From the NCBI GenBank assembly GCA_964628295.1, contig CAZVLS010000016.1, positions 10,933-74,932 on the forward strand: a DNA stretch of 64,000 nt, given 5' to 3'. Under the pieces are notes generated by a model, which saw only the letters and a program-made list of their open reading frames with translations, had not been told where the DNA came from and made no database searches. Below are positions 2,606-59,380 of the stretch, piece after piece. Position numbers and translations under genes: made by a program. Origin of the DNA: an uncultured Acidobacterium sp. (GTDB taxonomy: Bacteria; Acidobacteriota; Vicinamibacteria; Vicinamibacterales; UBA2999). Each line of letters opens with the position of its first letter. The first letter of the stretch is position 1.

Positions 2606-4054
2606 CTAGCCGACGGTTTCAGGCTCTTCCTCCGGGAGTGGTTCTCGCTTGCCGTCCATCTTCAACGACAGCTGCAAGTAGCCACTTTCATCGCGAGGAA
2701 ACGCCACCGGGTAATTGCCGGTGTAGCACGAGGTGCAATACGAAGCGCTCTTGCTCTTCACGGACGACAGCAGGCCGCCAAGGCTCAAGTAGCCCAGCGT
2801 ATCGGCACCGACGTACTTGCGGATCTCTTCCTGCGTGTGCGTCGCGGCGATCAATTCGCGCCGGCGGGGAGTGTCCACGCCGTAGAAGCAGGGCGACACG
2901 GTCGGCGGGCAGCTGATGCGCAAGTGCACCTCGGCGGCGCCGGCCGCCCGCACCATCTTCACGATCTTGCGGCTTGTCGTTCCGCGCACCAGCGAATCGT
3001 CGATCAGGACCACGCGGCGGCCTTCGATGATGCTGCGCACCGTATTGAGCTTGACCTTCACGCCAAAGTGACGAATCGACTGCGCCGGCTCGATGAACGT
3101 GCGGCCCACGTAGTGATTGCGTATCAGCCCCATGCGCAGCGGAATCTTTGATTCCTCCGAGTAACCAATCGCAGCGCAGACGCCGGAGTCGGGAATGGGT
3201 ACCACGACATCGGCCGGCACGCCGGTTTCACGGGCGAGCTCGCGGCCGAGATTGGTGCGGACTTCGTTGACGCTCTGGCCGAATACGTCGCTGTCGGGCC
3301 GCGCAAAGTAGACGTGCTCGAACACACAGTGCGAGAGCGGCGCCGGAGGGAACGGCTTGATCGACCGCAAGCCGTGCGGGCCGATGATCAGCACTTCGCC
3401 TGGCTCCACATCACGCACATAGGAGAAGCCGATCAAATCGAGCGCGCAGGTCTCCGACGTCACGGCCCAGGAGTCGCCGAGGCGGCCAAGCGCCAGCGGC
3501 CGGAAGCCGTGCGGGTCTCGCGCGGCGATCAACGAATTCCTGGTGATGAGCGCGAACGAGAACGCACCGGTCAGCTGGGTGATCGACTCGACCAGCGCGT
3601 CTTCAATGGATCCCGCCTGTGATCGCGCATACAGGTGCAGCACGACCTCGGTGTCGCTGTTGGTCTGGAAGATCGATCCGGCGCGGACCAGGCGATCGCG
3701 CACTTCGTTGGCGTTGACGATGTTGCCGTTGTGGCAGATGCCGACCTGGCCGTGGACGCAGTCGATCAGAATCGGCTGCGCGTTCGAGAGCTTGCTGTCA
3801 CCGGCGGTCGAGTAGCGTGTGTGTCCTATTGCCAGGGTGCCCGTCAGGGTTGCCAGCGTGGCTTCGTCGAAGATCTCGTTGACGTAGCCCATCTGCTTGA
3901 CGAGGCGAATCCGCTCACCGTCCGCCGACGCGATGCCTGCGCTTTCCTGCCCGCGGTGCTGCAGCGCATAGAGCCCGAGGTAGGTCAGCTTCGAAGCTTC
4001 GGGGTGCCCGTAGACACCGAAGACACCGCATTCGTCCTTGAATTTGTCGAGCAT
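2606..4054 (-). CDS. purF: Amidophosphoribosyltransferase
   Basis: 482 aa. An Ntn Cys follows a short propeptide (MLDKFKDE-CGVFGV). PRTase motif VVLIDDSLVRGTTS. Confidence 0.95.
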   Translation of the reverse strand: MLDKFKDECGVFGVYGHPEASKLTYLGLYALQHRGQESAGIASADGERIRLVKQMGYVNEIFDEATLATLTGTLAIGHTRYSTAGDSKLSNAQPILIDCVHGQVGICHNGNIVNANEVRDRLVRAGSIFQTNSDTEVVLHLYARSQAGSIEDALVESITQLTGAFSFALITRNSLIAARDPHGFRPLALGRLGDSWAVTSETCALDLIGFSYVRDVEPGEVLIIGPHGLRSIKPFPPAPLSHCVFEHVYFARPDSDVFGQSVNEVRTNLGRELARETGVPADVVVPIPDSGVCAAIGYSEESKIPLRMGLIRNHYVGRTFIEPAQSIRHFGVKVKLNTVRSIIEGRRVVLIDDSLVRGTTSRKIVKMVRAAGAAEVHLRISCPPTVSPCFYGVDTPRRRELIAATHTQEEIRKYVGADTLGYLSLGGLLSSVKSKSASYCTSCYTGNYPVAFPRDESGYLQLSLKMDGKREPLPEEEPETVG

Positions 4055-7060: not shown

Positions 7061-7088
7061 TTCCCGGCTCCCGGCTCCCGGCCTCCGA
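7061..7088. repeat. Heptamer array ttcccgg-ctcccgg-ctcccgg-cctccga (reverse complement TCGGAGG-CCGGGAG-CCGGGAG-CCGGGAA) filling the purS-purQ intercistronic spacer
   Basis: Read directly. On the coding (minus) strand it places GGAGG/GGGAG/GGGAA Shine-Dalgarno-like blocks 2-23 nt upstream of the purQ ATG (7058). Confidence 0.8.
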
Positions 7089-10014: not shown

Positions 10015-12867
10015 GTGACGCCCTTCCATTCCAAGTTCTGGGCATACGAGCTGACCCGGCGCGCCCCGGCTGACTCCATGGATCGGCTGGCCACCGCTCT
10101 CGTAGACGCTCAGGTCGACCTCAATCCTCATCAGATCGATGCCGCGCTCTTCGCCTTTCGATCACCGCTGTCAAAAGGCGTGCTGTTGGCTGACGAGGTG
10201 GGACTCGGCAAGACGATTGAGGCCGGGCTGGTGCTCGCCCAGAAGTGGGCCGAGCGGCGCCGGCGGCTGCTGGTCGTCACGCCATCCAATCTCCGCAAGC
10301 AGTGGCACCAGGAATTGAGCGACAAGTTCTTCCTCCCTTGCTCGATCGTTGAGTCCAAGCCCTACAACGAGGACGTCAAGCAGGGGCGGTTCAGGCCCTT
10401 CGAGCGCGACTCCATCGTCATTTGCTCGTATCAGTTCGCCCGCAACAAGGCCGCCGACATCAACGCCGTGCCCTGGGACTTGGTCGTGATGGACGAGGCG
10501 CACCGCCTCCGCAACGTCTACAAGCCCGGCAACGTGATTGCCAACACGCTGAAGCAGGCGCTGGCGCATGCGCCGAAGCTGCTGCTGACGGCCACACCGC
10601 TTCAGAATTCGCTCCTCGAGCTGTTCGGGCTGGTCAGCATCCTGGACGAGCAGGTGTTCGGAGACGTGCAGAGCTTTCGCGATCAGTATCTGCGCCTTGA
10701 CGAACAGCAGGTATTCCGAACACTAAAGAACCGCTTGAGGCCGGTGTGCCAGCGCACGCTTCGACGCCAGGTGACGGCTTACATCTCGTATACCCGGCGG
10801 CTGCCTCTCGTAGAGGAATTCACGCCGGCGCAGGCTGAGGACCACCTCTACTACGCGGTGTCCGACTACCTGTGCCGCCCCAACCTCCAGGCGCTGCCCT
10901 CCAGCCAGCGCGCGCTGATGACGCTGGTTCTTCGCAAGCTACTCGCCTCGTCTACGTTCGCGATCGCCGGCGCGCTCGAAACACTGATCAGGCGGTTGCG
11001 CGCGAAGATCCAGAAGCACGAGCCTGTGGAGCCGCTCAGCGAAGAGATGGAGCGTGACTTCGAGGGGCTGACCGAAGTTGCCGACGAGTGGGAGGAAGAC
11101 CCGGGCCCTCCGCTGTCGGACGCCGACCGTGCGGCCCTCGAGCGCGAGATCGCGGATCTGGAGGAATTTCGCAACCTCGCCACGTCGATCACGCACAACG
11201 CCAAAGGACAGGCGCTGCTGAAGGCGCTCGGCGTTGGCATGGCAAAGGCGGCCGAACTGGGCGCTGCCGAGAAGGCCATTGTCTTTACCGAATCGCGAAA
11301 GACTCAGGAATACCTGCTTCGCATCCTCGCCGACAGTCCCTGGAAAGACGGCATTGTCCTGTTCAACGGCTCGAACACCGACGAGGGGTCGAGAGCCATC
11401 TTCGCGGAGTGGAAGACACGGCACGAAGGCACCGATCGGGTCACCGGCTCGAAGACCGCCGACATGCGCTCGGCACTGGTCGAATATTTCCGCGAGCGCG
11501 GTCAGATCATGATCGCCACCGAAGCCGCCGCCGAGGGCATCAACCTGCAGTTCTGTTCGCTGGTCGTCAACTACGACCTGCCATGGAATCCGCAGCGCAT
11601 CGAACAGCGCATCGGCCGGTGCCATCGCTACGGCCAGAAACACGACGTCGTCGTCTTGAACTTCCTCAATCGGAGCAACGCCGCCGACCAGCGCGTGTTT
11701 CAGTTGCTCTCGGAGAAGTTCCGGCTGTTCGACGGCGTGTTCGGCGCCAGCGACGAGGTCCTTGGCGCCATTGAGTCCGGCGTTGATCTCGAAAAGCGCA
11801 TTGCCGGCATCTATCAGACCTGCCGCAAGCCGGACGAGATCAAGCAGGCCTTCGATCAGTTACAGCTCGAGCTCACCTCCGAGATCGAAGAGACGCTCAG
11901 CGCCGCGCGCCAGAACCTGCTCGAGACTTTTGACGATGAGGTGCGGGAGAAGCTGAAGATCAGGGATGCGGCATCGAAGTCGTCGCTCGGCCGATACGAG
12001 CGGCTGCTGATGGACATCACCAGACACGAGCTTCGCGACCACGCGCGATTCGTTGATGACAGCACGTTCGAGCTGCAGACCATTCCGAGTGCCGGCGCGG
12101 GTGTGCCCCTCGGACTTTATGAACTCCCCCGCAGATCCGGCAACGCGCATTTCTACCGGCTGAACCACCCACTTGCCGACCTTGTCGTGCAGCAGGCCAA
12201 GGCGCGGACTTTGAACAGCGGTGATCCTGTTGACGTTGCGTTCGACCTCACGAGCTACGCGGGGAAGGTGTCGGCGGTCGAGCCGTTGCGAGGTCAGGGG
12301 GGATGGCTGCGTGTGACATCCGTTGCCATCGAATCAATGGATCAGGCGGAGGATCACCTGCTGGTCGCGGCAACCACCGACGCCGGTGAGCCGGTCGACG
12401 GGGATATTGCGCGCCGATTATTCAGCCTTCCGGCAGCGGTCGGCGGGCACCTGCCTCTTGGTGGAGACATCTCTGCCCTCGAGCGGCTGGCGGCAGGACA
12501 GCAGTCGAAGATTCAGGAGAAGATTTCATCGGCCAACCTGGAACTGTTCGAAGCAGAGTCAGACAAGCTCGATGGTTGGGCGGACGACTTGAAGCTCGGA
12601 CTCGAGCGGGACATCAAGGAACTGGACAAGCAGATCAAGGAAGCGCGGAAGGCTGCGACGGTCACGACCTCACTTGAAGCCAAGCTTGCGGCCCAGAAGC
12701 GGATGAAGGCCATTGAGGCGGAACGCAACACCAGGCGGCGTTCGCTCTTCGACGCCCAGGACGAAATCGATCGCAAGCGCGGCGAACTGATCGCGCAGAT
12801 TGAAGGTAAGCTTGGCCAACGAATCACATCCGAACATTTGTTCACGATTCGCTGGAGAGTTGTGTAA
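10015..12867 (+). CDS. SNF2-family (SF2) helicase/translocase with a ~300-aa unassigned C-terminal region ending in a long coiled coil
   Basis: Walker A ADEVGLGKTIEAG, DEAH box VVMDEAHRLRN, Helicase_C motif VI QRIGRCHRYGQ. The track ORF starts at 9673 but overlaps the M16 gene. I prefer the in-frame GTG at 10015 (VTPFHSKFWAYELTRR...); the alternative is ATG at 10078. Confidence 0.85.
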   Translation: MTPFHSKFWAYELTRRAPADSMDRLATALVDAQVDLNPHQIDAALFAFRSPLSKGVLLADEVGLGKTIEAGLVLAQKWAERRRRLLVVTPSNLRKQWHQELSDKFFLPCSIVESKPYNEDVKQGRFRPFERDSIVICSYQFARNKAADINAVPWDLVVMDEAHRLRNVYKPGNVIANTLKQALAHAPKLLLTATPLQNSLLELFGLVSILDEQVFGDVQSFRDQYLRLDEQQVFRTLKNRLRPVCQRTLRRQVTAYISYTRRLPLVEEFTPAQAEDHLYYAVSDYLCRPNLQALPSSQRALMTLVLRKLLASSTFAIAGALETLIRRLRAKIQKHEPVEPLSEEMERDFEGLTEVADEWEEDPGPPLSDADRAALEREIADLEEFRNLATSITHNAKGQALLKALGVGMAKAAELGAAEKAIVFTESRKTQEYLLRILADSPWKDGIVLFNGSNTDEGSRAIFAEWKTRHEGTDRVTGSKTADMRSALVEYFRERGQIMIATEAAAEGINLQFCSLVVNYDLPWNPQRIEQRIGRCHRYGQKHDVVVLNFLNRSNAADQRVFQLLSEKFRLFDGVFGASDEVLGAIESGVDLEKRIAGIYQTCRKPDEIKQAFDQLQLELTSEIEETLSAARQNLLETFDDEVREKLKIRDAASKSSLGRYERLLMDITRHELRDHARFVDDSTFELQTIPSAGAGVPLGLYELPRRSGNAHFYRLNHPLADLVVQQAKARTLNSGDPVDVAFDLTSYAGKVSAVEPLRGQGGWLRVTSVAIESMDQAEDHLLVAATTDAGEPVDGDIARRLFSLPAAVGGHLPLGGDISALERLAAGQQSKIQEKISSANLELFEAESDKLDGWADDLKLGLERDIKELDKQIKEARKAATVTTSLEAKLAAQKRMKAIEAERNTRRRSLFDAQDEIDRKRGELIAQIEGKLGQRITSEHLFTIRWRVV

Positions 12868-14550: not shown

Positions 14551-14572
14551 TCAGGGACTAGGGACTAAGGAG
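14551..14572. repeat. Heptamer array tcaggga-ctaggga-ctaagga-g directly after the mod stop
   Basis: Read directly. It shares TCAGGGACT with the array at 59386 and the unit with the array at 172-194. Confidence 0.75.
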
Positions 14573-22252: not shown

Positions 22253-23413
22253 TTGTTCTTGCCGATGCTGCTGGTTCTCGGTTGCGCGACTGAGCCGCAA
22301 TCGTGGTCGGAACTGCAGAAGCAGTTACCCGGTCTTGCCGACGCCGCGCAACGTGACGCGGCGATCGAGCAGTTCATCGCGCGCAAGGGCGGTACGCCGA
22401 TCATCGAGAACCAGACGCGGCTGATCTTCCCGGTCAAGGACAAGGACGGGCTGCAGCCGCGCGTGGTCGGCGATTTCAACGCGTGGGCCGTGACGCCGCA
22501 GGGTTACGACACGACCATCGGCACCACCACCCGCATCGAAGGATCGAGCTGGGCGTTTGTCGAGGGCAAGTCCTACACCAACGCGCGCCTCGAGTACGGA
22601 TTCCTCTACGACAAGGAATACGCCACCGATCCGCTGAATCCGCGGACGGTGCAAGCGTTTGCCGGTCCGCGGTCGGAGATCCGGATGCCGTTCTTCGTCG
22701 CGCAGCCGGAGGTCGATGAACTGGGATCGGCACCGAAGGGTGAGCTGATCGCGGAGACGTTTGTGTCGCGCTCGCTCGCCGGATCGCGACGCGTCTGGTA
22801 TTACGTGCCGCCCGGTTACGCCGCCGCCACCGATGCGTTGTATCCGGTCGTGTATGTGCTCGACGGCGCGAACTACGTCGAGAAGATGGACGTGCCGAAA
22901 GTGCTCGATCACCTGATCGCGAACAAGACGATCCCGCCGGTGATCGCGGTGTTCTCTGAACCAGCCGATCGGCAGGAGGAATACTCGCGCAGCCCAAGGT
23001 GGCGCGCGTTCATCGCGAATGAGCTGGTGCCTGCGGTCGACAAGCGATTCCGCACCTTCCCCACTCCCGATCACCGCGTGATTCTTGGCAGTTCGCTGGC
23101 CGCGTATGGGGCCGTCGACCTCGCCGTCGCCGCACCATCGGTATTCGGACTGTGCGCTGCGATGGCGCCACCGGTGCAGGCTGCCACCGTGGTCTCCAAC
23201 CAGGCCGCCGCGCGTTCGGCAGTAGTGTCGATCAAGTTCTTCGTGATGGGCGGCGTCTACGACTCGATGATCGATGGCGCGCGGCTGCTCCGCACGACGC
23301 TCGACGAGTACCAGGCGCCGGTCAGTTACCTGGAAGTGTCCGAGGGGCACAACACGAATACGTTCCGCGGGCATCTCGATGATGCCCTCAAAGCTCTCCT
23401 GCCCGCGCAGTAG
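22229..23413 (+). CDS. Putative esterase (enterochelin-esterase-like alpha/beta hydrolase) lipoprotein
   Basis: RRVWYYVPPGY...YPVVYVLDG resembles the 'putative esterase' family. Signal peptide MVPRVPWVLFLPMLLVLGC has a lipobox-like VLGC. The track ORF starts at 22136, inside rlmN; I prefer ATG 22229. Confidence 0.65.
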   Translation: MVPRVPWVLFLPMLLVLGCATEPQSWSELQKQLPGLADAAQRDAAIEQFIARKGGTPIIENQTRLIFPVKDKDGLQPRVVGDFNAWAVTPQGYDTTIGTTTRIEGSSWAFVEGKSYTNARLEYGFLYDKEYATDPLNPRTVQAFAGPRSEIRMPFFVAQPEVDELGSAPKGELIAETFVSRSLAGSRRVWYYVPPGYAAATDALYPVVYVLDGANYVEKMDVPKVLDHLIANKTIPPVIAVFSEPADRQEEYSRSPRWRAFIANELVPAVDKRFRTFPTPDHRVILGSSLAAYGAVDLAVAAPSVFGLCAAMAPPVQAATVVSNQAAARSAVVSIKFFVMGGVYDSMIDGARLLRTTLDEYQAPVSYLEVSEGHNTNTFRGHLDDALKALLPAQ

Positions 23414-24707
23414 CCAGCGCCTTCCTGCCAATGTCTCGACGGTACTGCATGCCATCGAACTTGATCTTGCTCGCCGCTTCGTACGCACGGGCGATCGCGA
23501 TCTCGTAGGACGCGGCCATCGCCATCACGGTGAGCACTCGCCCACCCGACGTCACGAGGTCGCTGCCCTTCTGCTTCACGCCGGCGAAGAAGACCTGGAC
23601 GTCGGGACAATCACGCGCGACATCATCGAGGCCGTGAATCACATCGCCGGACCGCACGTCTCCGGGATAGCCGTGCGCCGCGAGCACGACGCCGACGGCC
23701 GCTAACCGGGAGCCGGGAGCCGGGAGCGGGGCGCCGGACAGACCGGTTCCCGGTTCCCGGGTCCTGGCCGAAGCAGCGGCGAGCAGCGGCGCAAGCGGCC
23801 CGAGCAACGGCAGCACGACTTGCGCTTCGGGATCGCCGAAGCGCACGTTGAACTCGATCACCTTCGGGCCGGCGGGAGTCAGCATCAGGCCGCAATACAG
23901 AAATCCGCGAAACGGATTTCCCTCCGAAGCCATACCCTTCAGCACCGGCTGCACGATCGTCGACTCAACCTGCTGCTGCAGCACCGGTGTCAGCAAAGGG
24001 CTCGGTGAGAAGGCGCCCATGCCGCCGGTGTTCGGTCCTTCGTCATTGTCGAAGATGCGCTTGTGATCCTGCGCAGACAGCAGCGGAACGTAATGCTCGC
24101 CGTTGGCGACGACGAAGAACGAGACTTCGGGACCGGTGAGCAGTTCCTCGAGCACGACCCTCGATCCGGCGTCGCCAAAGCTCTTGTCCACCATGGCGGC
24201 GTTCACGGCGGTTTCGGCCGTGGCTCGATCCGGCGCGACCACGACCCCCTTGCCGGCGGCCAGACCGTCAGCCTTCACCACCAGTGCGTCGCCAAATTCA
24301 CCCGATCGTATGGCGTCGATGGCCTGGGCGGCCGACGTGCACACCCGGTATTTCGCGGTGGGCACGTTGTGGCGCTGCATGAAGTCTTTTGCGAACGCCT
24401 TGCTGGTTTCGAGCTGGGCGGCGGCCTTGGTTGGGCCAAACACCGGGCGGCCCTCGGCCTCGAACCGGTCCGCCAAGCCGTTGCCAAGCGGCGCTTCGGG
24501 TCCAACGACGGTCAGATCGATGCGTTCCTGGTCGACGAGCCGAATCACCGCTTCGGTGTCCAATATGTCGACGGATTTGGTGGCTATTTGGCGGCCGATG
24601 CCCGGATTGCCGGGGGCGCAAATCACGTGGCTGACGCCGGGTTCGTCGGAAAGCTTCCAAGCCAGGGCGTGCTCGCGCGCGCCGGAGCCGAGGACCAGAA
24701 TTCGCAT
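23388..24707 (-). CDS. purD: Phosphoribosylamine-glycine ligase
   Basis: 439 aa. MRILVLGSGAREHALAWKL N-terminus, ATP-grasp core, GGRVL near the C-terminus. Confidence 0.95.
   Translation of the reverse strand: MRILVLGSGAREHALAWKLSDEPGVSHVICAPGNPGIGRQIATKSVDILDTEAVIRLVDQERIDLTVVGPEAPLGNGLADRFEAEGRPVFGPTKAAAQLETSKAFAKDFMQRHNVPTAKYRVCTSAAQAIDAIRSGEFGDALVVKADGLAAGKGVVVAPDRATAETAVNAAMVDKSFGDAGSRVVLEELLTGPEVSFFVVANGEHYVPLLSAQDHKRIFDNDEGPNTGGMGAFSPSPLLTPVLQQQVESTIVQPVLKGMASEGNPFRGFLYCGLMLTPAGPKVIEFNVRFGDPEAQVVLPLLGPLAPLLAAASARTREPGTGLSGAPLPAPGSRLAAVGVVLAAHGYPGDVRSGDVIHGLDDVARDCPDVQVFFAGVKQKGSDLVTSGGRVLTVMAMAASYEIAIARAYEAASKIKFDGMQYRRDIGRKALATARAGEL
23703..23763. repeat. Inverted heptamer arrays (aaccggg-agccggg-agccggg-ag ... 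accggtt-cccggtt-cccgggtcc) inside the purD coding sequence
   Basis: Read directly. The left arm CCGGGAG units and right arm TTCCCGG units can pair. They are translated in-frame as ...TREPGTGLSGAPLPAPGSRL... Confidence 0.75.
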
Positions 24708-25566: not shown

Positions 25567-26463
25567 GTGGCGACTCGGTCAACGGCGGCGAGCCTGTTCG
25601 TATCGCTGCGACCGGATCAGTGGACCAAGAACCTCATTGTCTTTGCCGCGCTGATTTTCGCCGTCAAATTGCTCGATCCGGCCGCCCTGGCGAATGCCTC
25701 GGCGGCCTTTTTGATTTTTTGCGCGTTGTCAGGCGCCGTGTACCTGATCAACGACGTGTCGGATCGCGAGCAGGATCGCCTGCATCCGATCAAGAAGATG
25801 CGGCCGATCGCGGCCGGCGACATCTCCCCAGGCACGGCGCTGACGTTCGCGATGGTGTTGAGCGTGGCCGCATTGGCCGCGTCGTTCGCGCTGCGGCCGG
25901 CCTTCGGGGTGGCGGCGGCGGCGTACCTGGCGTTGTTCGTCGTCTACACCCGGTCGCTGAAACACCTCGTCATCCTCGACGTGATGACGATCGCCATCGG
26001 CTTCGTGCTGCGGGCGGTGGCGGGAGGACTGGTAATCGACGTGCACATCAGCAATTGGCTGCTGGTCTGCACGATGCTCGGCGCGTTGTTCCTCGGCCTG
26101 GCCAAGCGGCGTCACGAAATGACGCTGCTCGCTGAAGGGGCCAAGGGGCACCGCCGCATTTTGGAGGAGTACGATCCGTACTTGCTCGATCAGATGATTG
26201 GTGTGGTGGCCGCGTCAACGATGGTCGCCTACATCATTTACTGCGCGAGCCCCGAAACGCGCGCGTATTTCGGCACCGAGTGGATGGTGCTGACGACGCC
26301 GTTTCCGATCTACGGGCTGTTCCGGTACCTGTATCTCGTCCATCGCAAGTCGGGCGGGGGCAGTCCATCGGACATGCTGATCGGCGACCGGCCGTTGCTG
26401 GCGTGCGTGCTGTTGTGGGGCGTCACCGCAATCGCGATCATCTATCGGCCGTTCGGATCGTAA
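25567..26463 (+). CDS. UbiA-superfamily prenyl-phosphate phosphoribosyltransferase (decaprenyl-phosphate phosphoribosyltransferase-like)
   Basis: 298 aa, polytopic. RPDQWTKNLIVFAALIFA and NDVSDREQDRLHPIKKMRPIAAG resemble DPPR synthase (Rv3806c-type) proteins. Confidence 0.75.
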   Translation: MATRSTAASLFVSLRPDQWTKNLIVFAALIFAVKLLDPAALANASAAFLIFCALSGAVYLINDVSDREQDRLHPIKKMRPIAAGDISPGTALTFAMVLSVAALAASFALRPAFGVAAAAYLALFVVYTRSLKHLVILDVMTIAIGFVLRAVAGGLVIDVHISNWLLVCTMLGALFLGLAKRRHEMTLLAEGAKGHRRILEEYDPYLLDQMIGVVAASTMVAYIIYCASPETRAYFGTEWMVLTTPFPIYGLFRYLYLVHRKSGGGSPSDMLIGDRPLLACVLLWGVTAIAIIYRPFGS

Positions 26464-26470
26464 GAAGTAT

Positions 26471-27769
26471 TTGGCACGATCCAAGGTAGCAATCGTCAAG
26501 ACGTCGCCGGCGACGGTCCGCAAGGACACGCACGCGGTGATGAACCTGGCCGGGTATCAGGACGTCCTCGCGAAGGATGCCGACACCGCGCTCAAGGTCA
26601 ACATCTCCTGGCATTTCTTCTTCCCGGGCTCGTCCACCACGCCCTGGCAGCTCGACGGCGTCATCGCCGCGATGAAGACGGATGGCTACGATCCGGATCT
26701 CATTCACGCCTGCCACAACCGCACCGTCGTCATCGACGCGCATCTCGGCGAAGCCGAGAACAAGCAGTTGCCGGTGGTCCAGGCGCACGGCCTGCGCAAC
26801 ATCCATCTCTATGAAGGCGACGAGCCGTGGATCAACGTCCGCGACGCCGTCGGCTCGGAGCTGGCCGACAAGTTCCTCTGCCTGAACGACGTCTATCCGG
26901 ACGGGTTCATGATCCCCAAGCGCTTCATCGGCGAGAACATCCTGCACCTGCCGACGGTGAAGACGCACGTGTTCACCACCACCACCGGCGCGATGAAGAA
27001 TGCGTTCGGTGGTCTGTTGAACGAGAAGCGCCACTGGACGCATCCGGTGATCCACGAGACGCTCGTCGATCTGCTGATGATCCAGAAGAAGATCCATCGC
27101 GGCGTGTTCGCGGTGATGGACGGCACGTTTGCCGGCGACGGCCCGGGGCCGCGCTGCATGGTGCCGCACGTGAAGAACGTGATGCTCGCCAGCTCCGACC
27201 AGGTCGCCATCGACGCGGTCGCGGCCAAGCTGATGGGCATGGACCCGATGTCGATCAAGTTCATCCGCATGGCCCACGACCTGGGCCTCGGGTGCGGCGA
27301 TCCGCGCGACATCGAGATCGTCGGCGATGTCGAGGCGGCGAAGGAGAACTGGCAGTTCACCGGCCCGTTCAAGAAGATGACCTTCGCCTCGAAGATGCAG
27401 CACTACATCTACTGGGGCCCGCTGAAGAAGCCGATCGAATGGTCACTGAAGACCGTGCTCGCCCCCTGGGCGTACATGGCCAGCGTCGTGTACCACGACA
27501 GCATCTGGTATCCGATGAACGCGGAGCGCAACATCAAGCGCGTGCTCGACAGCCCCTGGGGCCGGCTGTTCGAGAACTGGGAACGGCTCACCCCTGATGA
27601 AAACGGATTCCCGGACGTCGGCGAAGCGTCGGCGACCGTCACGCGTGCCGGCATGCACGCCTTCAAACAATCACTGGGCATTCTCGGCACGTGCATCAAG
27701 GAAGCACCCGAGTTCGGCCTCAGAAAGCGCCGAGTCGCCAGGGCCGCAGATGGCGCAGATCACATTTGA
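26471..27769 (+). CDS. DUF362 domain-containing protein
   Basis: 432 aa. VAIVKT...LKVNISW...LPTVKTHVFTTTTGAMKNAFGGLL matches my memory of DUF362. TTG start. The 3' end runs into repeat copy 27737. Confidence 0.7.
   Translation: MARSKVAIVKTSPATVRKDTHAVMNLAGYQDVLAKDADTALKVNISWHFFFPGSSTTPWQLDGVIAAMKTDGYDPDLIHACHNRTVVIDAHLGEAENKQLPVVQAHGLRNIHLYEGDEPWINVRDAVGSELADKFLCLNDVYPDGFMIPKRFIGENILHLPTVKTHVFTTTTGAMKNAFGGLLNEKRHWTHPVIHETLVDLLMIQKKIHRGVFAVMDGTFAGDGPGPRCMVPHVKNVMLASSDQVAIDAVAAKLMGMDPMSIKFIRMAHDLGLGCGDPRDIEIVGDVEAAKENWQFTGPFKKMTFASKMQHYIYWGPLKKPIEWSLKTVLAPWAYMASVVYHDSIWYPMNAERNIKRVLDSPWGRLFENWERLTPDENGFPDVGEASATVTRAGMHAFKQSLGILGTCIKEAPEFGLRKRRVARAADGADHI
27737..27760. repeat. Copy 4 of the dispersed GCCAGGGCCRCAGA... 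element
   Basis: gccagggccgcagatggcgcagat. It supplies the last codons (ARAADGADHI*) of the DUF362 gene and ends 25 nt upstream of the next start codon. Confidence 0.8.
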
Positions 27770-27784
27770 TCAAAAGGACATGAG

Positions 27785-28921
27785 ATGAGCGAGTTCACTA
27801 TCCGCTCGGAGTCGGTCGACGTCGAGCAGATCATGAAGCAGATCCGGCAGCGCATCCTCGAGAAGCGCGGGCAGGACTACACGGAAGATCAGATCCGCGA
27901 ACTGGCGTCGGTCCGTCTCGAGAAGTTCCTCGACCCGAAGAACCTGCGTTCCGATCTCCTCGATCAGTTCCGCAAGAGCCGTCCGGCCGTGGAGCCGGCT
28001 GACATCCAGCCGCCGAAGATCCAGCCGCCCTACGTGTTCGACGATCAGACGCTGTTTGCGTCGCACCGCGGGTTCATGCGCTTCATGCGCAAGCTGCTCA
28101 ACCCGCTGCTCAAGCTGATGTTCAACCCCAACACGCTGAACCAGGTCCTGCATACGCAGGCGCAGTTCAACGTCGACATGCTGAAGCGAGAGGCGCGCCG
28201 GTCGGTCGAACAACGCCAGCTCGAACGCTCGCGCGGGGAATGGAACGCGCTCTACTACGAGGTGCTGCACAACATCGTGCTCGAGACCACGCGCATGGGC
28301 ATCGAGGTGCAGAACCAGCGCATGAAGATCGAGTCGCTGTCGAGCCGCCTCGATTTCAGCGAGCGCCGCGTGCGCGCGCTCGAGGGCGTCGTGCAGTACC
28401 GCCCCGAAGCGGTGCGCGGGAGCGACCGTGACGAAGACCGGCATCACGGCGCGCAGGGTCCCCAAGGTGCACAGGGTGCACAGGGTGCGCAAAGTGCACA
28501 GGGTGCTGCCGGTTTCGAAGGGTTCGTGCCGAGCAGCGGGCAACCTGGCCAGGGTCAAGGTGATGGCTCAGGCCGGCGCCGGCGTCGGCGTCGCCGCGGG
28601 CGGCGCGGAGGGCAGAACCAGGGTGCCGAAGGTGCCACCGGCGCCTTTGGTGCCTCAGGTGCTCCGGGCGCGCAGAGTGCGCCGGGCGCACATGGCGTTT
28701 CCGAAGACGGATTCGAAGACGCGGATGGCGACGAGAGCGGCGAGGAGTTCGATCCGAACGATCCGGGCGCCGAAGCGCAGGAAGCTCTCGAGGGGCGGGC
28801 GGCGCAAGAGTTCGCCGAACCCGCGCCACACGCACCACAGTCACACCCGGCACCAGAGGCACCGCAGTCACCCGACGTGGCTGAGGCACCCAAGGCACCC
28901 GGCTCCGACGACGCCCAGTGA
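27785..28921 (+). CDS. Hypothetical protein: conserved-looking helical/coiled-coil N-terminal ~200 aa plus a disordered Gly/Ala/Gln, poly-Arg and acidic C-terminal half
   Basis: 378 aa. N-terminus MSEFTIRSESVDVEQIMKQIRQRILEKRG. C-terminal half contains AQGPQGAQGAQGAQSAQGAAG, RRRRRRRRGRRGG and GAEGATGAFGASGAPGAQSAPGAHG. 4-nt overlap with the next gene. Confidence 0.6.
   Translation: MSEFTIRSESVDVEQIMKQIRQRILEKRGQDYTEDQIRELASVRLEKFLDPKNLRSDLLDQFRKSRPAVEPADIQPPKIQPPYVFDDQTLFASHRGFMRFMRKLLNPLLKLMFNPNTLNQVLHTQAQFNVDMLKREARRSVEQRQLERSRGEWNALYYEVLHNIVLETTRMGIEVQNQRMKIESLSSRLDFSERRVRALEGVVQYRPEAVRGSDRDEDRHHGAQGPQGAQGAQGAQSAQGAAGFEGFVPSSGQPGQGQGDGSGRRRRRRRRGRRGGQNQGAEGATGAFGASGAPGAQSAPGAHGVSEDGFEDADGDESGEEFDPNDPGAEAQEALEGRAAQEFAEPAPHAPQSHPAPEAPQSPDVAEAPKAPGSDDAQ
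28451..28513. repeat. Seven tandem nonamers (gcgcagggt ccccaaggt gcacagggt gcacagggt gcgcaaagt gcacagggt gctgccggt), in-frame
   Basis: Read directly. Encodes (A/P)Q(G/S) triplets. Confidence 0.8.
28622..28696. repeat. Eight tandem nonamers of type GGYGCNNNN (ggtgccgaa ggtgccacc ggcgccttt ggtgcctca ggtgctccg ggcgcgcag agtgcgccg ggcgcacat), in-frame
   Basis: Read directly. Encodes the G-A-x triplet run GAEGATGAFGASGAPGAQSAPGAHG. Confidence 0.75.
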
Positions 28922-30603
28922 AAGTCGCCGTCGTCGTACAACGGTATGGCGCCGACATCAACGGCGGCGCCGAGCAGCACGCGCGTTATGTCGCCGAGCA
29001 CCTGGTCAAGCACGTCCAGGTCGAGGTGCTGACGACGTGCGCGCATCGCGACTACATTTCGTGGAAGAACGAGCTGCCGGCAGGCAAGGAAATGGTGAAC
29101 GGCATCGCCGTGCATCGCTTCCCTGTCGCCGTCGAGCGCAATCCCGTCGAGTTCGCGAAGTGGTCGACGAAGGTCTTCAGCGAGCAGCACTCGCTCCGCG
29201 ATGAGCTGGCGTGGCTCGACTCCGAAGGGCCCAGAAGCCCGGCGCTGATCGACCACATCACCAAGCACGAAGCCGACTACGACTTCTTCATCTTCTTCAG
29301 CTTCCGCTATCACCACTCGTTCCACGGCTGTCGCGCGGTTGCCTCGAAGGCGATCCTCGTGCCGACGGCCGAGCGTGACGGCGCGCTCGGGCTCGGCATC
29401 TATCCGCCGGTGTTCAGAGGCGTGCGCGCGTTCATGTACAACTCGTTCGAAGAGCGGGCGTTGATCCAGACGGTCTCCAACAACCAGTCGGTGCCCAGCG
29501 TGGTCGTTGGCATCGGCTCGGAGATTCCGGAGCGCTCGAACGCCGGGCGGTTCCGGCAGAAGTTCGAGATGCGCGACCGCTTGGCGATCTACGTCGGGCG
29601 CATCGACGAGAACAAGGGCTGCGTCGAGCTGTTCGAATTCTTTGAACACTACAGCGCGTCGCTCGTAGACGGCATGCACCTCGTGCTGATCGGCACACCG
29701 CATGTGCCGATCCCCAAGCATCCAAAGATTCACCACCTGGGCTTCCTCGAGGACCAGGACAAGTACGACGCGATGGCCGCGGCCGAATTGCTGATCATGC
29801 CGTCGTACCTCGAGAGCCTGTCGATGGTGGCACTCGAGGCGTGGGCCATGGGCAAGCCGGTCCTCGCCAATGCCAAGTGCGATGTGCTGCAGGGGCAGTG
29901 CATTCGCAGCAATGCCGGACTGTTCTACGAGAACTATCCGGAGTTTGCGGCAACGATGCGCGCGATCGACACCACGCCAAGCTTGCAGGCGGCCCTCGGC
30001 CGCAATGGGCGCACCTTTTTCGAGCGCCACTACGCCTGGCCGGTGATCGAGAAGAAGTATGTCGACATGCTCAACCGGCTGTCGCAGGAGCCGGCGCCGA
30101 AGATCATGGAGCCGATGCCTGGCTGGTTCAGCCGCCGGCGCAAGTCGCTGCCACCGGCGGATGACGTCGTGAAGCAACTGCCGGCCGGACCGTATCGAGA
30201 GCAGGCCAGCAGGCCAACGGGCCAGCAGGCCAACCGGCACGCTGGGCAGTCGTCCGCCGGAACGCCACACGCGGCTGCGAGCGGACCCCCCCGCGACTCG
30301 TCGGCACGCCACAGCCAGCAGCGGCCGGCACGGCCTGACCACCGGCATCAGTCACAAGGCAGGCCTCAGCGCGCCGATCAGCGAAATGACAAGCGGCACG
30401 ATCAGCGTCGTGACCAGAAGCGCGATGATCGTCAGCCTGCAGAGGCGAGCCAGAATCGTCCGCCCAGCGACGCCCCTGCCCAGGCCAAACCCCGGCCTGA
30501 GGGACAGGGCTCACGGGATCAACGGCCGCGCGATCAGCGACGCGGGCGTCCGCATCGCCGCGGACGGCGGCCGGGTGGCGGCGGGGGCGGCGGCGCGCGC
30601 TGA
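28918..30603 (+). CDS. GT4-family glycosyltransferase (type A paralog) with a ~165-aa basic, disordered C-terminal tail
   Basis: 561 aa. E-x7-E motif ESLSMVALE. N-terminus MKVAVVVQRYGADINGGAEQH is paralogous to the ORF at 32939. The tail ends RRGRPHRRGRRPGGGGGGGAR. Confidence 0.8.
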   Translation: MKVAVVVQRYGADINGGAEQHARYVAEHLVKHVQVEVLTTCAHRDYISWKNELPAGKEMVNGIAVHRFPVAVERNPVEFAKWSTKVFSEQHSLRDELAWLDSEGPRSPALIDHITKHEADYDFFIFFSFRYHHSFHGCRAVASKAILVPTAERDGALGLGIYPPVFRGVRAFMYNSFEERALIQTVSNNQSVPSVVVGIGSEIPERSNAGRFRQKFEMRDRLAIYVGRIDENKGCVELFEFFEHYSASLVDGMHLVLIGTPHVPIPKHPKIHHLGFLEDQDKYDAMAAAELLIMPSYLESLSMVALEAWAMGKPVLANAKCDVLQGQCIRSNAGLFYENYPEFAATMRAIDTTPSLQAALGRNGRTFFERHYAWPVIEKKYVDMLNRLSQEPAPKIMEPMPGWFSRRRKSLPPADDVVKQLPAGPYREQASRPTGQQANRHAGQSSAGTPHAAASGPPRDSSARHSQQRPARPDHRHQSQGRPQRADQRNDKRHDQRRDQKRDDRQPAEASQNRPPSDAPAQAKPRPEGQGSRDQRPRDQRRGRPHRRGRRPGGGGGGGAR

Positions 30604-30605
30604 CC

Positions 30606-31853
30606 ATGCCTGTCGCGATTCACCAGGTACTCGCGACCCTCGGGTATGGCGACGCCATCGGTCACGAGGTGCTGGGCATCCAGCGCGTGTTGCGCGGTGC
30701 CGGCTATGACTCGGAGATCTTCGTCCAGACGGCGGATCCGCGTCTCGAGCACCTGACGCTCGACTATCGCGACCTGACGGACGCGAGCCATCCCGACAAC
30801 ATCCTGATCCATCACTTTTCGATCGGCTCGCGCGCGTCGAGAATGGCGTACGCGCTGCCCGACCGAATGGCGCTGATCTACCACAACATCACGCCGCCGG
30901 AATTCTTCGTCGACGTGAACAAGGAATTGGTGCGTCTCTGCTTCAGGGGACGCCGTGAGCTTGAACTCTACAAGTCACGCTGTGACCTCGCGCTCGGCGA
31001 CTCGGAATACAACCGGCAGGAGCTCGAGGCGCTTGGCTTCGCGCCAACCGGTGTGCTCGACGTGGTCCCAGGCTTCGATCATCTCAAGGGACCGGCCGAC
31101 TTCACGTTCGCCGGCGCGTTCGATGACGACTGGGTCAACCTCATCTTCGTCGGCCGCGTGATCCCGAACAAGCGGATCGAGGACGTGATCCGCTTCTTCC
31201 ACGCCTACAAGACGTTTTTCAATCCTCGCTCTCGCCTGCTGCTGGTCGGTGCGCACTCGGGATTCGAGCGCTACCTCACGATGCTGCACAACTTCATCGC
31301 TGAGATTGGCGCCCGCGACGTGCACCTGATCGGTCACGTCACTAACGAAGAACTCACTGCTTACTACGAGCTGGCCGATGCGTTCGTCTGTGCCAGCGAG
31401 CACGAGGGTTTCTGCGTGCCGCTGGTCGAAGCCTTCCATATGGGCGTGCCGGTGCTCGCGTTTGCGGCAACCGCGGTGCCATCAACCATGGATGGCGCCG
31501 GCGTGCTCTACACCAGCAAGGATCCAATGCACGTGGCCGGATTGATCAACGCGATCGTTGATGATCCGGAGGTGTCCCGGAAGATCGTCGAGGGTCAATA
31601 CCAGGCGCTCGAGCGGCTGGACGCGAAGGATTTTGCCGGCACGCTGCTGCATCACATGGATCGACTGCAGGCATCGCCGCGCCGCGAGCATCCACCGGTC
31701 GCGTTTGATTTCTGGGACCAGGTCGAGCGCGCCGAAGACTACGACGAGATCAAGTCGTACCGCCCCGCCGCATTCCAGGCCCTGCCTCCCGAACCGCCGG
31801 GAACCGGGAACCGGGAGCCGGGAACCGGGAACCGGGAACCGGGAACCGCATGA
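30606..31853 (+). CDS. GT4-family glycosyltransferase (type B paralog)
   Basis: 415 aa. E-x7-E motif EGFCVPLVE. Paralogous to the ORF at 31850. The C-terminus PGTGNREPGTGNREPGTA is encoded by the heptamer array. Confidence 0.8.
   Translation: MPVAIHQVLATLGYGDAIGHEVLGIQRVLRGAGYDSEIFVQTADPRLEHLTLDYRDLTDASHPDNILIHHFSIGSRASRMAYALPDRMALIYHNITPPEFFVDVNKELVRLCFRGRRELELYKSRCDLALGDSEYNRQELEALGFAPTGVLDVVPGFDHLKGPADFTFAGAFDDDWVNLIFVGRVIPNKRIEDVIRFFHAYKTFFNPRSRLLLVGAHSGFERYLTMLHNFIAEIGARDVHLIGHVTNEELTAYYELADAFVCASEHEGFCVPLVEAFHMGVPVLAFAATAVPSTMDGAGVLYTSKDPMHVAGLINAIVDDPEVSRKIVEGQYQALERLDAKDFAGTLLHHMDRLQASPRREHPPVAFDFWDQVERAEDYDEIKSYRPAAFQALPPEPPGTGNREPGTGNREPGTA
31797..31845. repeat. Near-perfect tandem heptamer array: 7 x CCGGGAA (third unit CCGGGAG) ending 4 nt before the ATGA stop/start overlap of two GT genes
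   Basis: Counted directly: units at 31797, 31804, 31811, 31818, 31825, 31832 and 31839. Confidence 0.9.
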
Positions 31854-32911
31854 TCGTGAATCAGTGGGTTCCGGCTGCGCACAAGGGAGACGCCATCGGA
31901 GACTCGGCGAGGCGCGTGCGGGGCTTGCTGCGCGAGATGGGACACCAGTCCGATCTCTACGCGATGACGATGGATGACGACCTGCGGGGCGACGTGATTC
32001 CGTGGACGGATTCAAGCGCCAGCCGTGGCGATCTCACGATCTTTCACTTCGCGCTCGTGTCGCCGATGACCTCGGAATTCGCCAGGCTGAAGACCGGCCG
32101 CGTGTTGCAGTATCACAACGTCACGCCGGCGCATTTCTTCGCCGGTTATGACGCTGCGGTCTACCGGCTGGCCATGCTCGGCCGCGAAGACTTGAAGAGG
32201 CTCGTTGGCAACACCGACATGGCGCTGGGCGATTCCGAATACAACCGCCAGGAACTGGAAGACCTCGGCTTCAGCAACACCGGTGTCTTTCCGATCGCGG
32301 TCGACACCGAACGCATCACGGCGGCGCCCCGGCGGCCGGCGCTCGAGAAGATTCTCGCGGAAGAAGGCTGGCTGAACTTCCTGTTTGTCGGGCGCATTGC
32401 CCCGAACAAGAAGATCGAAGATCACATCAAGCTGGCCGAGCACTACAAGCGCTACGTCGACGAGCAGTATCGCTTCATCTTCGTGGGCAAGACGGATGCG
32501 ATGCCGATGTATTACGCGTCGATCCGCGCCATGCTCGAACGCTACCGGATGCCGCAGGGACGCTTCATCTTCACGGGCCCGGTTCCGGACGTCGAGCTGG
32601 CGACCTATTACCGGACGGCCAGCGTCTATATTTCGCTCTCCGAGCATGAGGGCTTCTGCGTGCCCCTGCTGGAAGCCATGGCTGCCGACGTCCCGGTGCT
32701 CGCGTACGGAACGACGGCAGTGCCGGACACGCTTGGCGGCGCGGGCGTGCAGTTTGCGCCGAAGGACCTGGAGTATGCGGCGGAGCTCCTTGGCGAGCTC
32801 GCCTACAACGACACCCTGCGGCAGCAGGTCATTGCCGGGCAGCGCGCCCGGCTCGCCGATTTCGGCGACGACCGCATCCGCAGGGAACTTGACAAGCTGA
32901 CATCCTTATGA
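31850..32911 (+). CDS. GT4-family glycosyltransferase (type B' paralog)
   Basis: 353 aa. E-x7-E motif EGFCVPLLE. The ATG overlaps the upstream TGA (ATGA). Confidence 0.8.
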   Translation: MIVNQWVPAAHKGDAIGDSARRVRGLLREMGHQSDLYAMTMDDDLRGDVIPWTDSSASRGDLTIFHFALVSPMTSEFARLKTGRVLQYHNVTPAHFFAGYDAAVYRLAMLGREDLKRLVGNTDMALGDSEYNRQELEDLGFSNTGVFPIAVDTERITAAPRRPALEKILAEEGWLNFLFVGRIAPNKKIEDHIKLAEHYKRYVDEQYRFIFVGKTDAMPMYYASIRAMLERYRMPQGRFIFTGPVPDVELATYYRTASVYISLSEHEGFCVPLLEAMAADVPVLAYGTTAVPDTLGGAGVQFAPKDLEYAAELLGELAYNDTLRQQVIAGQRARLADFGDDRIRRELDKLTSL

Positions 32912-32938
32912 GGCTGACATCGCAATGAGGCTAACCCT

Positions 32939-34177
32939 GTGAAGATCGCGTTCATCGTTCAGCGTTACGGCGCTGAGATTCTCGGCGGCTCCGAATATCA
33001 CTGCCGCCTGATCGCCGAACGCCTGGCCCTCAAGCACGACGTCGAGGTATTGACGACGTGCGCGCAGGACTACATCACCTGGGAGAACCACTATCCCGAG
33101 GGCAGCGACCGCATTCGCGGCGTGACGGTGCGCCGCTTCAAGAACTCGCGGACCCGGGACATCACGACCTTCAACCAGTACTCCGACTGGATCTTTCACC
33201 ACGAGCACACCCGTGAAGACGAGCTGTCGTGGCTCGAACAGCAGGGCCCGTGGTGCCCGCCGCTCCTCGACTACCTGCAGAAGCACCACCGTCAGTACGA
33301 CGCGTTGATCTTCTTCACGTATCTCTACGCGCCGACCGTGCTCGGCCTCGACATCGACCCGTCGCGCAGCATCCTGGTGCCGACCGCGCACAACGAGCCG
33401 GCGATCCATCTCGGGATCTACAAGGAGATGTTCAAGAAGGCCTCGGCGGTCGCATTCAACACCGAGGTCGAGAAGAACTTCCTGAAGACGACGTTCGAGT
33501 TCAAGTCGATCGCGGAAGAGACCGTGGGCTGCGGCGTCGACCTGTTGAACGACCAGGCGCAGCCGGATGATCCCGAGCCGGAGGACGAGGAAGAGATTCA
33601 CAAGCGGCTGGCGCCGCATCTGCGGGCACGCGGCGCCCAGTTCCGCCGGCGGCATCGGCTGCAGGGACAGTTTCTGCTCTACGGCGGCCGCATCGACGCC
33701 GGCAAGGGCTGCGAGGAGCTGATCGAGTACTTCACCAGCTACAAGGAGCAGGGCGGCGACGCGCAGCTCGCGCTGATGGGCGTGAAGGTCATGCAGTTGC
33801 CCGAGGTGCCGTGGGTTCGCTTTGCGGGCCTGCTCTCCGAACGCGAGCGACTGCAGGCGCTGGAGGCGGCGACGATCGTCGTGGTGCCTTCGCCGCTCGA
33901 GAGCCTGTCACTGCTGGCACTGGAAGCGATGGCGGTCGGCACGCCGGTGCTGTGCAACGCGCGCGCGGATGTACTGGTCGAGCATTGCCACAAGAGCAAC
34001 GCCGGCCTCTACTACCAGGATCGCGATGAGTTCGTCGAATGCACCAAGCTGCTGCTCGCCGACGAGCGGCTCCGCGACCGCATGGGCAGGAACGGCAAGG
34101 AATACATCAAGCGCAACTATCGCTGGGATGTGATCATGTCGAAGTACGACAAGCTCATCGGGGCGCTGCGACGATGA
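32939..34177 (+). CDS. GT4-family glycosyltransferase (type A' paralog)
   Basis: 412 aa. E-x7-E motif ESLSLLALE. N-terminus MKIAFIVQRYGAEILGGSEYH parallels the ORF at 28918. Confidence 0.8.
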   Translation: MKIAFIVQRYGAEILGGSEYHCRLIAERLALKHDVEVLTTCAQDYITWENHYPEGSDRIRGVTVRRFKNSRTRDITTFNQYSDWIFHHEHTREDELSWLEQQGPWCPPLLDYLQKHHRQYDALIFFTYLYAPTVLGLDIDPSRSILVPTAHNEPAIHLGIYKEMFKKASAVAFNTEVEKNFLKTTFEFKSIAEETVGCGVDLLNDQAQPDDPEPEDEEEIHKRLAPHLRARGAQFRRRHRLQGQFLLYGGRIDAGKGCEELIEYFTSYKEQGGDAQLALMGVKVMQLPEVPWVRFAGLLSERERLQALEAATIVVVPSPLESLSLLALEAMAVGTPVLCNARADVLVEHCHKSNAGLYYQDRDEFVECTKLLLADERLRDRMGRNGKEYIKRNYRWDVIMSKYDKLIGALRR

Positions 34178-34262
34178 AGTTTCACGTTCTAAGTTTCAAG
34201 TTTCAAGTTGAGTTTGAGTTGAGTTTGAGTTGAGTTGAGAGATTCAAGTTGAAGTTAATAGT
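34177..34262. repeat. AT-rich degenerate tandem repeat block (agtttca / agttgag / tttgag / ttgag units)
   Basis: aagtttcacgttctaagtttcaagtttcaagttgagtttgagttgagtttgagttgagttgagagattcaagttgaagtt. This is the lowest-GC stretch I saw in the window. It lies between the GT operon stop and the next start. Confidence 0.8.

Positions 34263-56787: not shown

Positions 56788-59380
<2,593 letters not shown>

Follow-up and report, generated by a model that had tools for sequence, protein, structure and literature searches.

The stretch analysed in this work (hereafter the window) comprises 64,000 nucleotides from a contig of an uncultured Acidobacterium sp. of the order Vicinamibacterales (CAZVLS010000016.1, positions 10,933 to 74,932). 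It contains two adjacent glycosyltransferase genes, here called GT1 and GT2, and a heptanucleotide array at their junction. The array reads CCGGGAA CCGGGAA CCGGGAG followed by four further CCGGGAA units, then CCGC, then the tetranucleotide ATGA (31850-31853), in which the stop codon of GT1 overlaps the start codon of GT2 (Table 1). It was the top tandem repeat found in the window by Tandem Repeats Finder (TRF), and both flanking open reading frames (ORFs) carry Glycos_transf_1 / Glyco_trans_1_4 domains. A preliminary description of this DNA had reported a near-perfect array of seven 7-nt CCGGGAA units, ending 4 nt before the ATGA of a glycosyltransferase-glycosyltransferase junction, and had proposed it as a candidate phase-variation or fusion switch. 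The sequence and TRF confirm the array, and Pfam confirms the GT4 / Glycos_transf_1 nature of both genes. As to its role, the results make it likely that the array is a slippage-prone heptanucleotide microsatellite, tolerated and filtered so that the stop/start overlap is kept, and not a purpose-built switch.

In the GT1 frame the array is translated as PGTGNREPGTGNREPGT, a low-complexity PGTGNRE repeat. Conservation of GT1 runs to ...RPAAFQALPPEP (residue ~397), the final ~18 residues are array-encoded and not conserved. Orthologs of GT1 (394-439 aa) have variable tails: after the conserved ...AL(P) motif, 120 orthologs carry tails of 4-46 aa, with a mode of 14 aa (about 4 units) among those of array type. 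The tail of the window GT1, 22 aa, is near the top of this range. The window GT1 is identical to protein P0121 of an NCBI genome, and GT1 homologues are labelled Vicinamibacterales (Acidobacteriota); an exact look-up of the window GT1, GT2 and P0121 in the contig index returned no match.

The position of the tract is such that a change of unit number alters the reading frame, as would be required of a contingency locus. Alleles generated by a script, which added or removed 7-nt units, showed that a gain of one unit creates a 770-aa GT1-GT2 fusion and a loss of two units a 763-aa fusion. Loss of one unit extends GT1 to 454 aa, with a stop at the end of the ORF at 31558-31977, and gain of two units extends it to 461 aa. 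Loss or gain of three units retains the ATGA overlap and yields GT1 proteins of 408 and 422 aa, respectively. The arithmetic of the preliminary description (fusion after +7 nt, a GT2 frame open back to the TGA at 31706-31708, and a GT1 extended by ~42 aa to 31977 after -7 nt) was therefore correct. It must be noted that the genome is GC-rich and that, as the natural fusions described below also show, a frameshift almost anywhere close to the junction leads to fusion, thus the predicted fusion is no special property of the array.

Table 1. Positions of the junction genes and of the CCGGGAR-type arrays in the window.
Feature	Position	Strand	Basis
Heptanucleotide array (CCGGGAA)x7.4, unit 3 = CCGGGAG	31797..31848	+	TRF (period 7, 7.4 copies, 95% matches, score 97)
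GT1, GT4-family glycosyltransferase, 415 aa	30606..31853	+	Pfam PF00534, PF13692
GT2, GT4 glycosyltransferase, 353 aa, paralogue of GT1	31850..32911	+	ORF, Glycos_transf_1 domain
ATGA stop/start overlap, GT1 stop on GT2 start	31850..31853	+	NTGA overlap in orthologous junctions
(CCGGGAG)2 + CCGGGAA, fills purS-purQ spacer, ends 3 nt before purQ ATG	7061..7081	-	Pattern match
Inverted pair, (CCGGGAG)x3 on + and (CCGGGAA)x2-3 on -, inside purD	23706..23764	.	Pattern match, Pfam
CCGGCTC x2.4, reverse complement of the CCGGGAR unit, inside enolase	58494..58511	-	TRF, pattern match

Array length and reading frame at the junction in relatives

A near-identical strain is represented by L163, a Logan assembly of SRR23217745, which differs from window positions 29757-33726 by 29 substitutions in 3,949 nt. 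The sole indel is a 21-nt deletion in the array (four units versus seven in the window), hence a GT1 of 408 aa and an intact ATGA overlap. The five members of the >=90% cluster likewise have GT1 proteins of either 408 or 415 aa. Among close strains, no tract length differing by other than a multiple of 3 nt was present in the consensus sequences compared (the only difference is 21 nt), and alleles with one unit more or less were absent from every consensus sequence compared. The preliminary description had looked to unit number in related strains as a check of the switch: the number does vary, seven versus four, and the sole change seen is one that stays in frame. Because unit number varies between near-identical strains and the arithmetic is right, single-unit slips would fuse or uncouple GT1 and GT2. 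A metagenome scan contained at least one relative at >90% among the matches listed, and it gave breadth rather than strain depth.

Some slightly more distant relatives have not maintained the tract. L001 (94.3% nucleotide and 96% amino acid identity) has no indel in 4,509 nt and a tract as long as that of the window; its array is degenerate, with differences at 15 of 56 array positions versus 5.4% elsewhere, which means that the tract either evolves about five times faster than its surroundings or was re-homogenised in the lineage of the window. L003/P0002 (94-95% amino acid identity) has no array at all, GT1 ends in ...PPEPQP, and the ATGA organisation is unchanged. This is the very situation, an ortholog without the array and with the same gene organisation, which the preliminary description had named as evidence against its proposal. 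The array is dispensable for the arrangement of the two genes, and at this conserved position close relatives differ both in its length and in its sequence.

We compared the junction in 159 orthologous loci, using the end of conserved GT1 (...ALPPE) and the start of GT2 as anchors. The filler between the anchors measures from -7 to 924 nt, with a maximum of 212 nt among the 82 closest loci, and the minimal junction, 'CC ATGA', was found in several species. Filler length was congruent to 2 mod 3 in 129 of the 159 loci, and in 84 of the 112 with a filler of at least 20 nt. The GT1 stop overlaps the GT2 start (NTGA) at 99 of the 159 junctions and lies earlier, often as TGATG, at 46. In 11 loci GT1 reads 4-217 nt into GT2, the longer cases being distant loci with imprecise anchors. 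None of the 159 junctions encodes a fused GT1-GT2. About 40 junctions hold period-7 arrays, whose units are unrelated between species (GGGAACC, GGGACCC, GGGAACA, GGATCCC, GGCTTAA, AATTTGG, AAATGCA, GCGTGCT, CCAATCC, CGGGAGT and others). Of 38 junctions with a period-7 array of at least 21 nt, 27 have the GT1 stop in the overlap and the other 11 stop earlier, so that in all 38 GT1 terminates at or before the GT2 start. One of the 11, L047, had been scored by the script as a fusion and was corrected manually: the call was an artefact of anchor extension, GT1 stops at a TGA that is followed by a 150-nt intergenic heptamer palindrome.

Some further features of this junction were recorded. An insert resembling a repetitive extragenic palindrome (REP), translated as PFDSAR..ASLAQDKP, is located between GT1 and GT2 in L007 (5182-5244) and L008 (5188-5242). 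GT1 tails of this type occur in P0016, P0022, P0024, P0027 and others, and are accompanied by heptamer arms in P0042 and P0099. The tblastn matches of GT1 span 1.7-1.9 kb in L010, L040, L047, L067 and L073, about 500-650 nt above expectation, which suggests insertions or frameshifts inside GT1.

A search for fused alleles by homology among 5.8 billion proteins, with the hypothetical +1 fusion allele as query, returned a few long proteins (626-959 aa). Those covering both glycosyltransferases were 737-796 aa long (P0138, P0139, P0140 and P0204), and all were singletons. P0138, P0139 and P0140 were followed across the join, and in each of them GT1 is out of frame already upstream of the junction, not at the array: in two the shift is upstream of the FDFW motif, in P0139 it falls within the last ~10 codons of GT1. 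We therefore rejected array slippage as the source of these natural fusions; indel errors of long reads, or sporadic mutations, are the probable cause.

Heptamer arrays in the window and in related genomes

The unit of the junction array recurs in the window. The 64 kb contain four loci with CCGGGAR arrays, of which three are at housekeeping genes (Table 1), and (CCGGGAR)2 with at most one mismatch matched 12 times versus 0.22 times expected from dinucleotide shuffles. The inverted pair in purD (23388-24707, minus strand) falls in the linker that joins GARS_A to GARS_C, and its in-frame translation reads ..REPGTG..PAPGSRL..; the pair forms a modest hairpin (z = -1.6), and the 83% identical purD of the relative L002 has no such pair, leaving a 10-aa gap in the alignment. 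The array in the enolase gene (57974-59380) similarly falls in the linker between Enolase_N and Enolase_C, where it encodes ..DSGSRLPY... The presence of the same unit in purD, enolase and the purS/purQ spacer indicates that it is not concentrated in surface or contingency genes, and justifies the caution of the preliminary description, which had pointed to heptamer arrays at housekeeping genes.

Six further period-7 arrays, made of other units, are situated at gene junctions within the window; non-CCGGGAR heptamers were found at the junctions 167-194, 14553-14571, 34177-34239 and 60805-60880. In the window-scale listing these four, together with 7061-7081 and 31797-31848, show that the arrays are mostly between co-directional ORFs, near stop and start codons. 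At 167-194 the stop codon TAG of purM falls within a (TAGGGAT)x3 array, which reaches the next ATG. The array at 34177-34239 is an AT-rich composite (AAGTTTC x4.7, then AGTTGAGTTTG x2.8) beginning on the stop codon of GT3, and the corresponding position in L005, L006, L008, L021, L068 and L069 is occupied by other period-7/14 arrays. At 60805-60880, between a 161-aa ORF and the gene of methylmalonyl-CoA mutase, there is a palindromic pair of GTAGCCA-type heptamers with a hairpin of -57 kcal/mol (z = -9.9), terminator- or REP-like in appearance.

The preference for a period of seven extends to the relatives. A TRF census (score >=40) covering 164 loci of about 160 relatives, 0.97 Mb in total, yielded 68 period-7 arrays versus 2 of period 6 and 9 of period 8; period-7 arrays are the dominant non-triplet repeat class of these Vicinamibacterales loci. 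Forty of the 68 are in a single site of ~50 nt, the GT1-GT2 junction, and without this site there are still 28, versus 0.3 in a Markov control. Six period-7 arrays were found within 21 kb of the finished genome of Luteitalea sp. TBR-22, an isolate; one of them is (CGGGAGT)x10.3 at the GT1-GT2 junction. In this genome (L164, AP024452.2) arrays were recorded at 447-475, 3166-3241, 4471-4574 and 11185-11264. One consists of CCGGGCA x10.9, and the last, at 610,535-610,614 of AP024452.2, is the array of the GT1-GT2 junction, where (CGGGAGT)4 forms a duplicated block. In the literature searched, no description of heptamer arrays from Vicinamibacterales was found.

Comparison of the junction in relatives carrying the CCGGGAR unit revealed three states of a palindrome of the form (CCGGGAR)n / (YTCCCGG)n. 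Both arms are present in L021, the reverse arm only in L004, and the forward arm only in the window, L002, L006 and L163, which suggests that the tract of the window is an expanded half-element. Many of the junction arrays in relatives are inverted pairs, and these fold very strongly (L021 z = -9.8, -72 kcal/mol; L030 z = -8.1). The array of the window, taken alone, has no significant RNA fold (z = -0.96 and -1.7), and in this respect it does not resemble a REP-type stem-loop. A motif of at least four G3-N4 repeats occurs five times in the window, three times as a heptamer array, and the GT1 array is G3N4 x7; ViennaRNA run with G-quadruplex (G4) energies did not choose a G4 over ordinary Watson-Crick pairing in the array. 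The search of the whole window against Rfam, at gathering thresholds, gave no match. Two mechanisms acting in translation were tried and rejected. The GGGAG/GGGAA core, repeated every 7 nt before the starts of GT2 and purQ, could be read as a Shine-Dalgarno array; this fails as a general explanation, because the units of other species have no Shine-Dalgarno-like core, some are on the opposite strand, and array-less relatives do without such a sequence. Programmed -1 ribosomal frameshifting was dismissed by inspection, as the unit is no match to the slippery motif X XXY YYZ.

The two genes belong to a conserved locus. Its genes are, in order, purD, rpsU, one for a STAS protein, a gene resembling UbiA-type decaprenyl-phosphate phosphoribosyltransferase, DUF362, a collagen-like gene, four GT4 genes and asparaginase. 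Synteny from purD to the GT4 genes is shared with a 92% relative and with Luteitalea sp. TBR-22, and the glycosyltransferase cluster adjoins purD and rpsU in more than 150 species; it is a conserved, syntenic core locus and no variable island. Within the cluster (25567-34177) the UbiA-like gene matches NF008977 with 305 bits, and the collagen-like gene (27785-28921) encodes a G-X-Y repeat protein. Judged from these domains, the cluster may specify an envelope glycan or glycoprotein pathway.

Origin and possible roles of the junction array

We consider the tract, with the fair degree of confidence expressed at the outset, as a member of the lineage-wide period-7 class, whose arrays would accumulate at weakly constrained sites such as intercistronic junctions, C-terminal tails and interdomain linkers. 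It would be tolerated in GT1 since the C-terminal tail, translated here as the PGTGNRE repeat, appears to be free of sequence constraint, and its probable source is a palindromic (CCGGGAR)n-loop-(YTCCCGG)n element, from which it descends or of which it is the left arm, retained and then expanded. Unit number would drift by replication slippage, with selection keeping only those lengths at which GT1 terminates on the ATGA that starts GT2; such selection would leave changes in multiples of 3 nt, for example the 21 nt observed. Single-unit slips would arise at low frequency, produce a fusion or an uncoupled GT1 extended by ~40 aa, and be harmful by-products rather than a maintained ON/OFF state. 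The ATGA overlap, constant while the filler varies, is predicted to be a translational-coupling junction, since overlaps are prevalent and GT2 has no obvious Shine-Dalgarno sequence in array-less relatives.

The array is a heptamer repeat of the kind described in Xanthomonas, Nostoc and Geobacter, both in its multiple dispersed loci and in the period-7 excess of its lineage. The GGGAATC repeats of Xanthomonas occupy 186 and 183 loci with 2-26 units (mode four), ~90% are intergenic, near the stop codon of the upstream ORF, and 70-75 form inverted pairs (PMC4692102). The length of the Xanthomonas and Nostoc repeats varies between species, and phase variation was judged unlikely by the authors because the repeats are associated with housekeeping genes (Rehm et al. 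2015, PMC4692102). Our arrays share with the GGGAATC and the Nostoc GGGGAYT repeats (PMC4692102) the 7-nt unit with GGG (the window unit, written as GGGAACC, is one base from GGGAATC), the many dispersed loci, mostly between co-directional ORFs near stop or start codons, the frequent inverted pairs, the occurrence at housekeeping genes, the mode of ~4 units with outliers, and the variability of length and sequence between close relatives at conserved positions. They differ in that the window array is in a translated ORF tail, at an overlapping stop/start and with the frame conserved, that several unrelated units coexist in one genome and the unit at one site changes with the species, and that the host belongs to the Acidobacteriota. 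The G4 of the Xanthomonas and Nostoc repeats was formed in vitro, whereas here the G3N4 motif is read from the sequence and a G4 is not favoured by ViennaRNA. The four-heptamer GGACCGG/GGGACCG elements of Geobacter metallireducens, found at 49 inter- and intragenic loci and guessed to be regulatory (Aklujkar et al. 2009, PMC2700814), have a near-identical GC-rich unit (GGAACCG here, CGGGACC in L038), a similar number of ~4 tandem units and locations also inside genes; they were described as fixed four-unit elements matched by BLAST, and analyses of frame, strains or hot spots were not reported there. An over-representation of heptameric simple sequence repeats (SSRs) among bacteria was described in 2007 (cited in PMC4692102).

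Two other groups of repeats are similar in part. Cyanobacterial short tandemly repeated repetitive (STRR) heptamers and the TAACTGA direct repeats of Beggiatoaceae, Cyanobacteria and Bacteroidetes (PMC4679880) are likewise tandem heptamers, intergenic, often just before start codons and characteristic of lineages, but TAACTGA contains stop codons and is essentially untranslated, and the units are different, while the window array is in-frame coding sequence. The tandem repeats of Borgs (PMC9879509) resemble our tract as fast-evolving repeats translated into a low-complexity, probably disordered peptide; the units of Borg ORF repeats are divisible by 3, whereas here the unit has 7 nt and only the total length is 3n. 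What is distinct in the present case is the translated in-frame tract at a stop/start overlap, the several unit families per genome, the arrays in enzyme linkers and the re-use of one junction across species.

Several points weigh against this explanation by tolerance and filtering. The sequences compared are consensus sequences, the window itself coming from a metagenome-assembled genome (MAG), and thus represent majority alleles; low-frequency variants with one unit more or less would escape notice. The species entering the counts are phylogenetically related, so the counts are not independent. We infer translational coupling from the overlaps only. The clustering of array-type tails at 14 aa, about 4 units, would fit the requirement of a G4, hence a functional constraint, by analogy to Xanthomonas (PMC4692102). 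Finally, the concentration of arrays at the GT1-GT2 junction is not obviously explained by pure neutral tolerance, and hints at a function or at a targeting mechanism.

A more ambitious model is possible, although we do not favour it: an active system of Vicinamibacterales for the turnover of heptamer arrays, often palindromic and with species-specific units, would use a mechanism generating them at, or targeting them to, junctions and linkers, translated arrays would be held in frame, the GT1-GT2 junction would be a landing or birth site that sets the GT1:GT2 ratio, and the seven-unit allele would yield fusions at a meaningful rate.

It is also conceivable, but we think unlikely, that the G-rich tract is a functional cis-element, a G4, a half or whole stem-loop or a protein-binding array, which tunes intercistronic expression, mRNA stability or GT2 initiation in the way proposed for the GGGAATC, GGGGAYT and TAACTGA repeats of other phyla. 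The sense strand has seven GGG tracts, one every 7 nt, matching the motif of at least four G3-N4 repeats, and 4 nt separate the end of the array from the start of GT2. The ~4-unit mode of the relatives equals the minimum for a G4, and the same preference, together with G4 formation in vitro, was observed in Xanthomonas and Nostoc (PMC4692102). In many species this junction is a hot spot of arrays, and the inverted-pair versions fold at z = -8 to -10. These points are countered by the ViennaRNA results, which include neither a G4 nor a significant fold of the array, by junction units that elsewhere are often not G-rich (AATTTGG, AAATGCA, GGCTTAA, GCGTGCT) or are on the opposite strand, by the missing array of L003 and the degenerate one of L001, and by the lack of a match to Rfam; moreover, Rehm et al. 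saw no regulatory role for their repeats (PMC4692102).

REPs and bacterial interspersed mosaic elements (BIMEs) are intercistronic palindromes of enterobacteria. Like them, our arrays are located between co-transcribed genes and are species-specific, and hairpins are found in the two-arm relatives and at 60805-60880 in the window; unlike them, the window array has no partner arm or significant fold, is built of tandem heptamers, and its four copies share no flanks. We regard it as distinctly unlikely that the tract is the footprint of a small mobile palindromic element, of REP type or a miniature inverted-repeat transposable element (MITE), which lost one arm. Such a history would concern the origin of the tract only and would be compatible with later tolerance and filtering. 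It would account for the both-arm, right-arm and left-arm states among 84-99% relatives, for the two-arm copy in the window purD that is missing from the L002 purD, and for the REP-like translated motif FDSAR..ASLAQDKP at the junction of other relatives. The four window copies, however, have neither a terminal motif nor a target-site duplication in common, unit number differs at every locus, and species-specific units at one site fit birth in situ and concerted evolution better than transposition. No gene resembling a REP-associated tyrosine transposase (RAYT) turned up, although no search aimed at RAYT was made.

Tetranucleotide frameshift switches in lipooligosaccharide (LOS) glycosyltransferase genes are SSR contingency loci. 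With these the junction array shares a slippage-prone non-triplet tract at a surface-related gene, where a change of unit number would alter expression. That the array is a true contingency locus, in which reversible single-unit changes toggle between separate glycosyltransferases, a fusion and an uncoupled state, with selection for glycan heterogeneity, is nevertheless very improbable in our view. In its favour, the genes encode glycosyltransferases, the arithmetic works, unit number varies in near-identical strains, and with 7.4 units at 95% matches the array is longer and purer than is usual in its family. In Haemophilus influenzae, 7-bp repeats upstream of hmw1A/hmw2A, phase-variable with many tract lengths among isolates, provide a precedent for a 7-bp SSR driving phase variation (PMC8262952, PMC12721329); they act on transcript level from the 5' untranslated region or promoter and not by frameshifting, whereas the window array is within a coding tail. 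Contingency loci show ON/OFF alleles and tracts maintained at specific genes. Here the sole variation is by three units, only in-frame states were seen, no junction is fused, all 38 array junctions stop at or before the GT2 start, and the homologues include no array-mediated fusion, the >=90% cluster having GT1 of 408 or 415 aa only. Relatives at 94-96% lack the array or carry a degenerate one without any change of organisation, the CCGGGAR repeat is found in purD, enolase and the pur operon as well, and the cluster is a syntenic core locus in more than 150 species. The arithmetic and the mutability of the tract (7 versus 4 units) thus speak for the earlier proposal, the constantly kept frame and the dispensability of the array against a dedicated switch; we consider phase variation partly, and the switch interpretation only weakly, supported.

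An assembly or sequencing artefact, to be thought of because the sequence is MAG-derived and repeats can mis-assemble, is hardly credible: the 49-nt array is shorter than one read, independent ENA, JGI, Logan and NCBI assemblies (L163, L001, L002 and L006 among the relatives) carry arrays at the junction, and so does the finished Luteitalea genome.

If the explanation by slippage, tolerance and filtering is true, a perfect non-triplet repeat at a junction of glycosyltransferase genes is not sufficient to call a contingency locus in lineages rich in heptamers. The junction would be an example of selection shaping a microsatellite, with a total length of 3n despite the 7-nt unit and an overlap that is preserved while the filler turns over to unrelated units. 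With this lineage, the heptameric SSR excess described in Xanthomonas, Nostoc and Geobacter reaches into an abundant phylum of soil bacteria, and the arrays tolerated inside the linkers of purD and enolase are in unusual locations. The hot spot and the period-7 bias are the parts of most further interest, and the cultured Luteitalea sp. TBR-22, with its 10-unit junction array, would be a tractable system for studying the period-7 bias and the role of the array.

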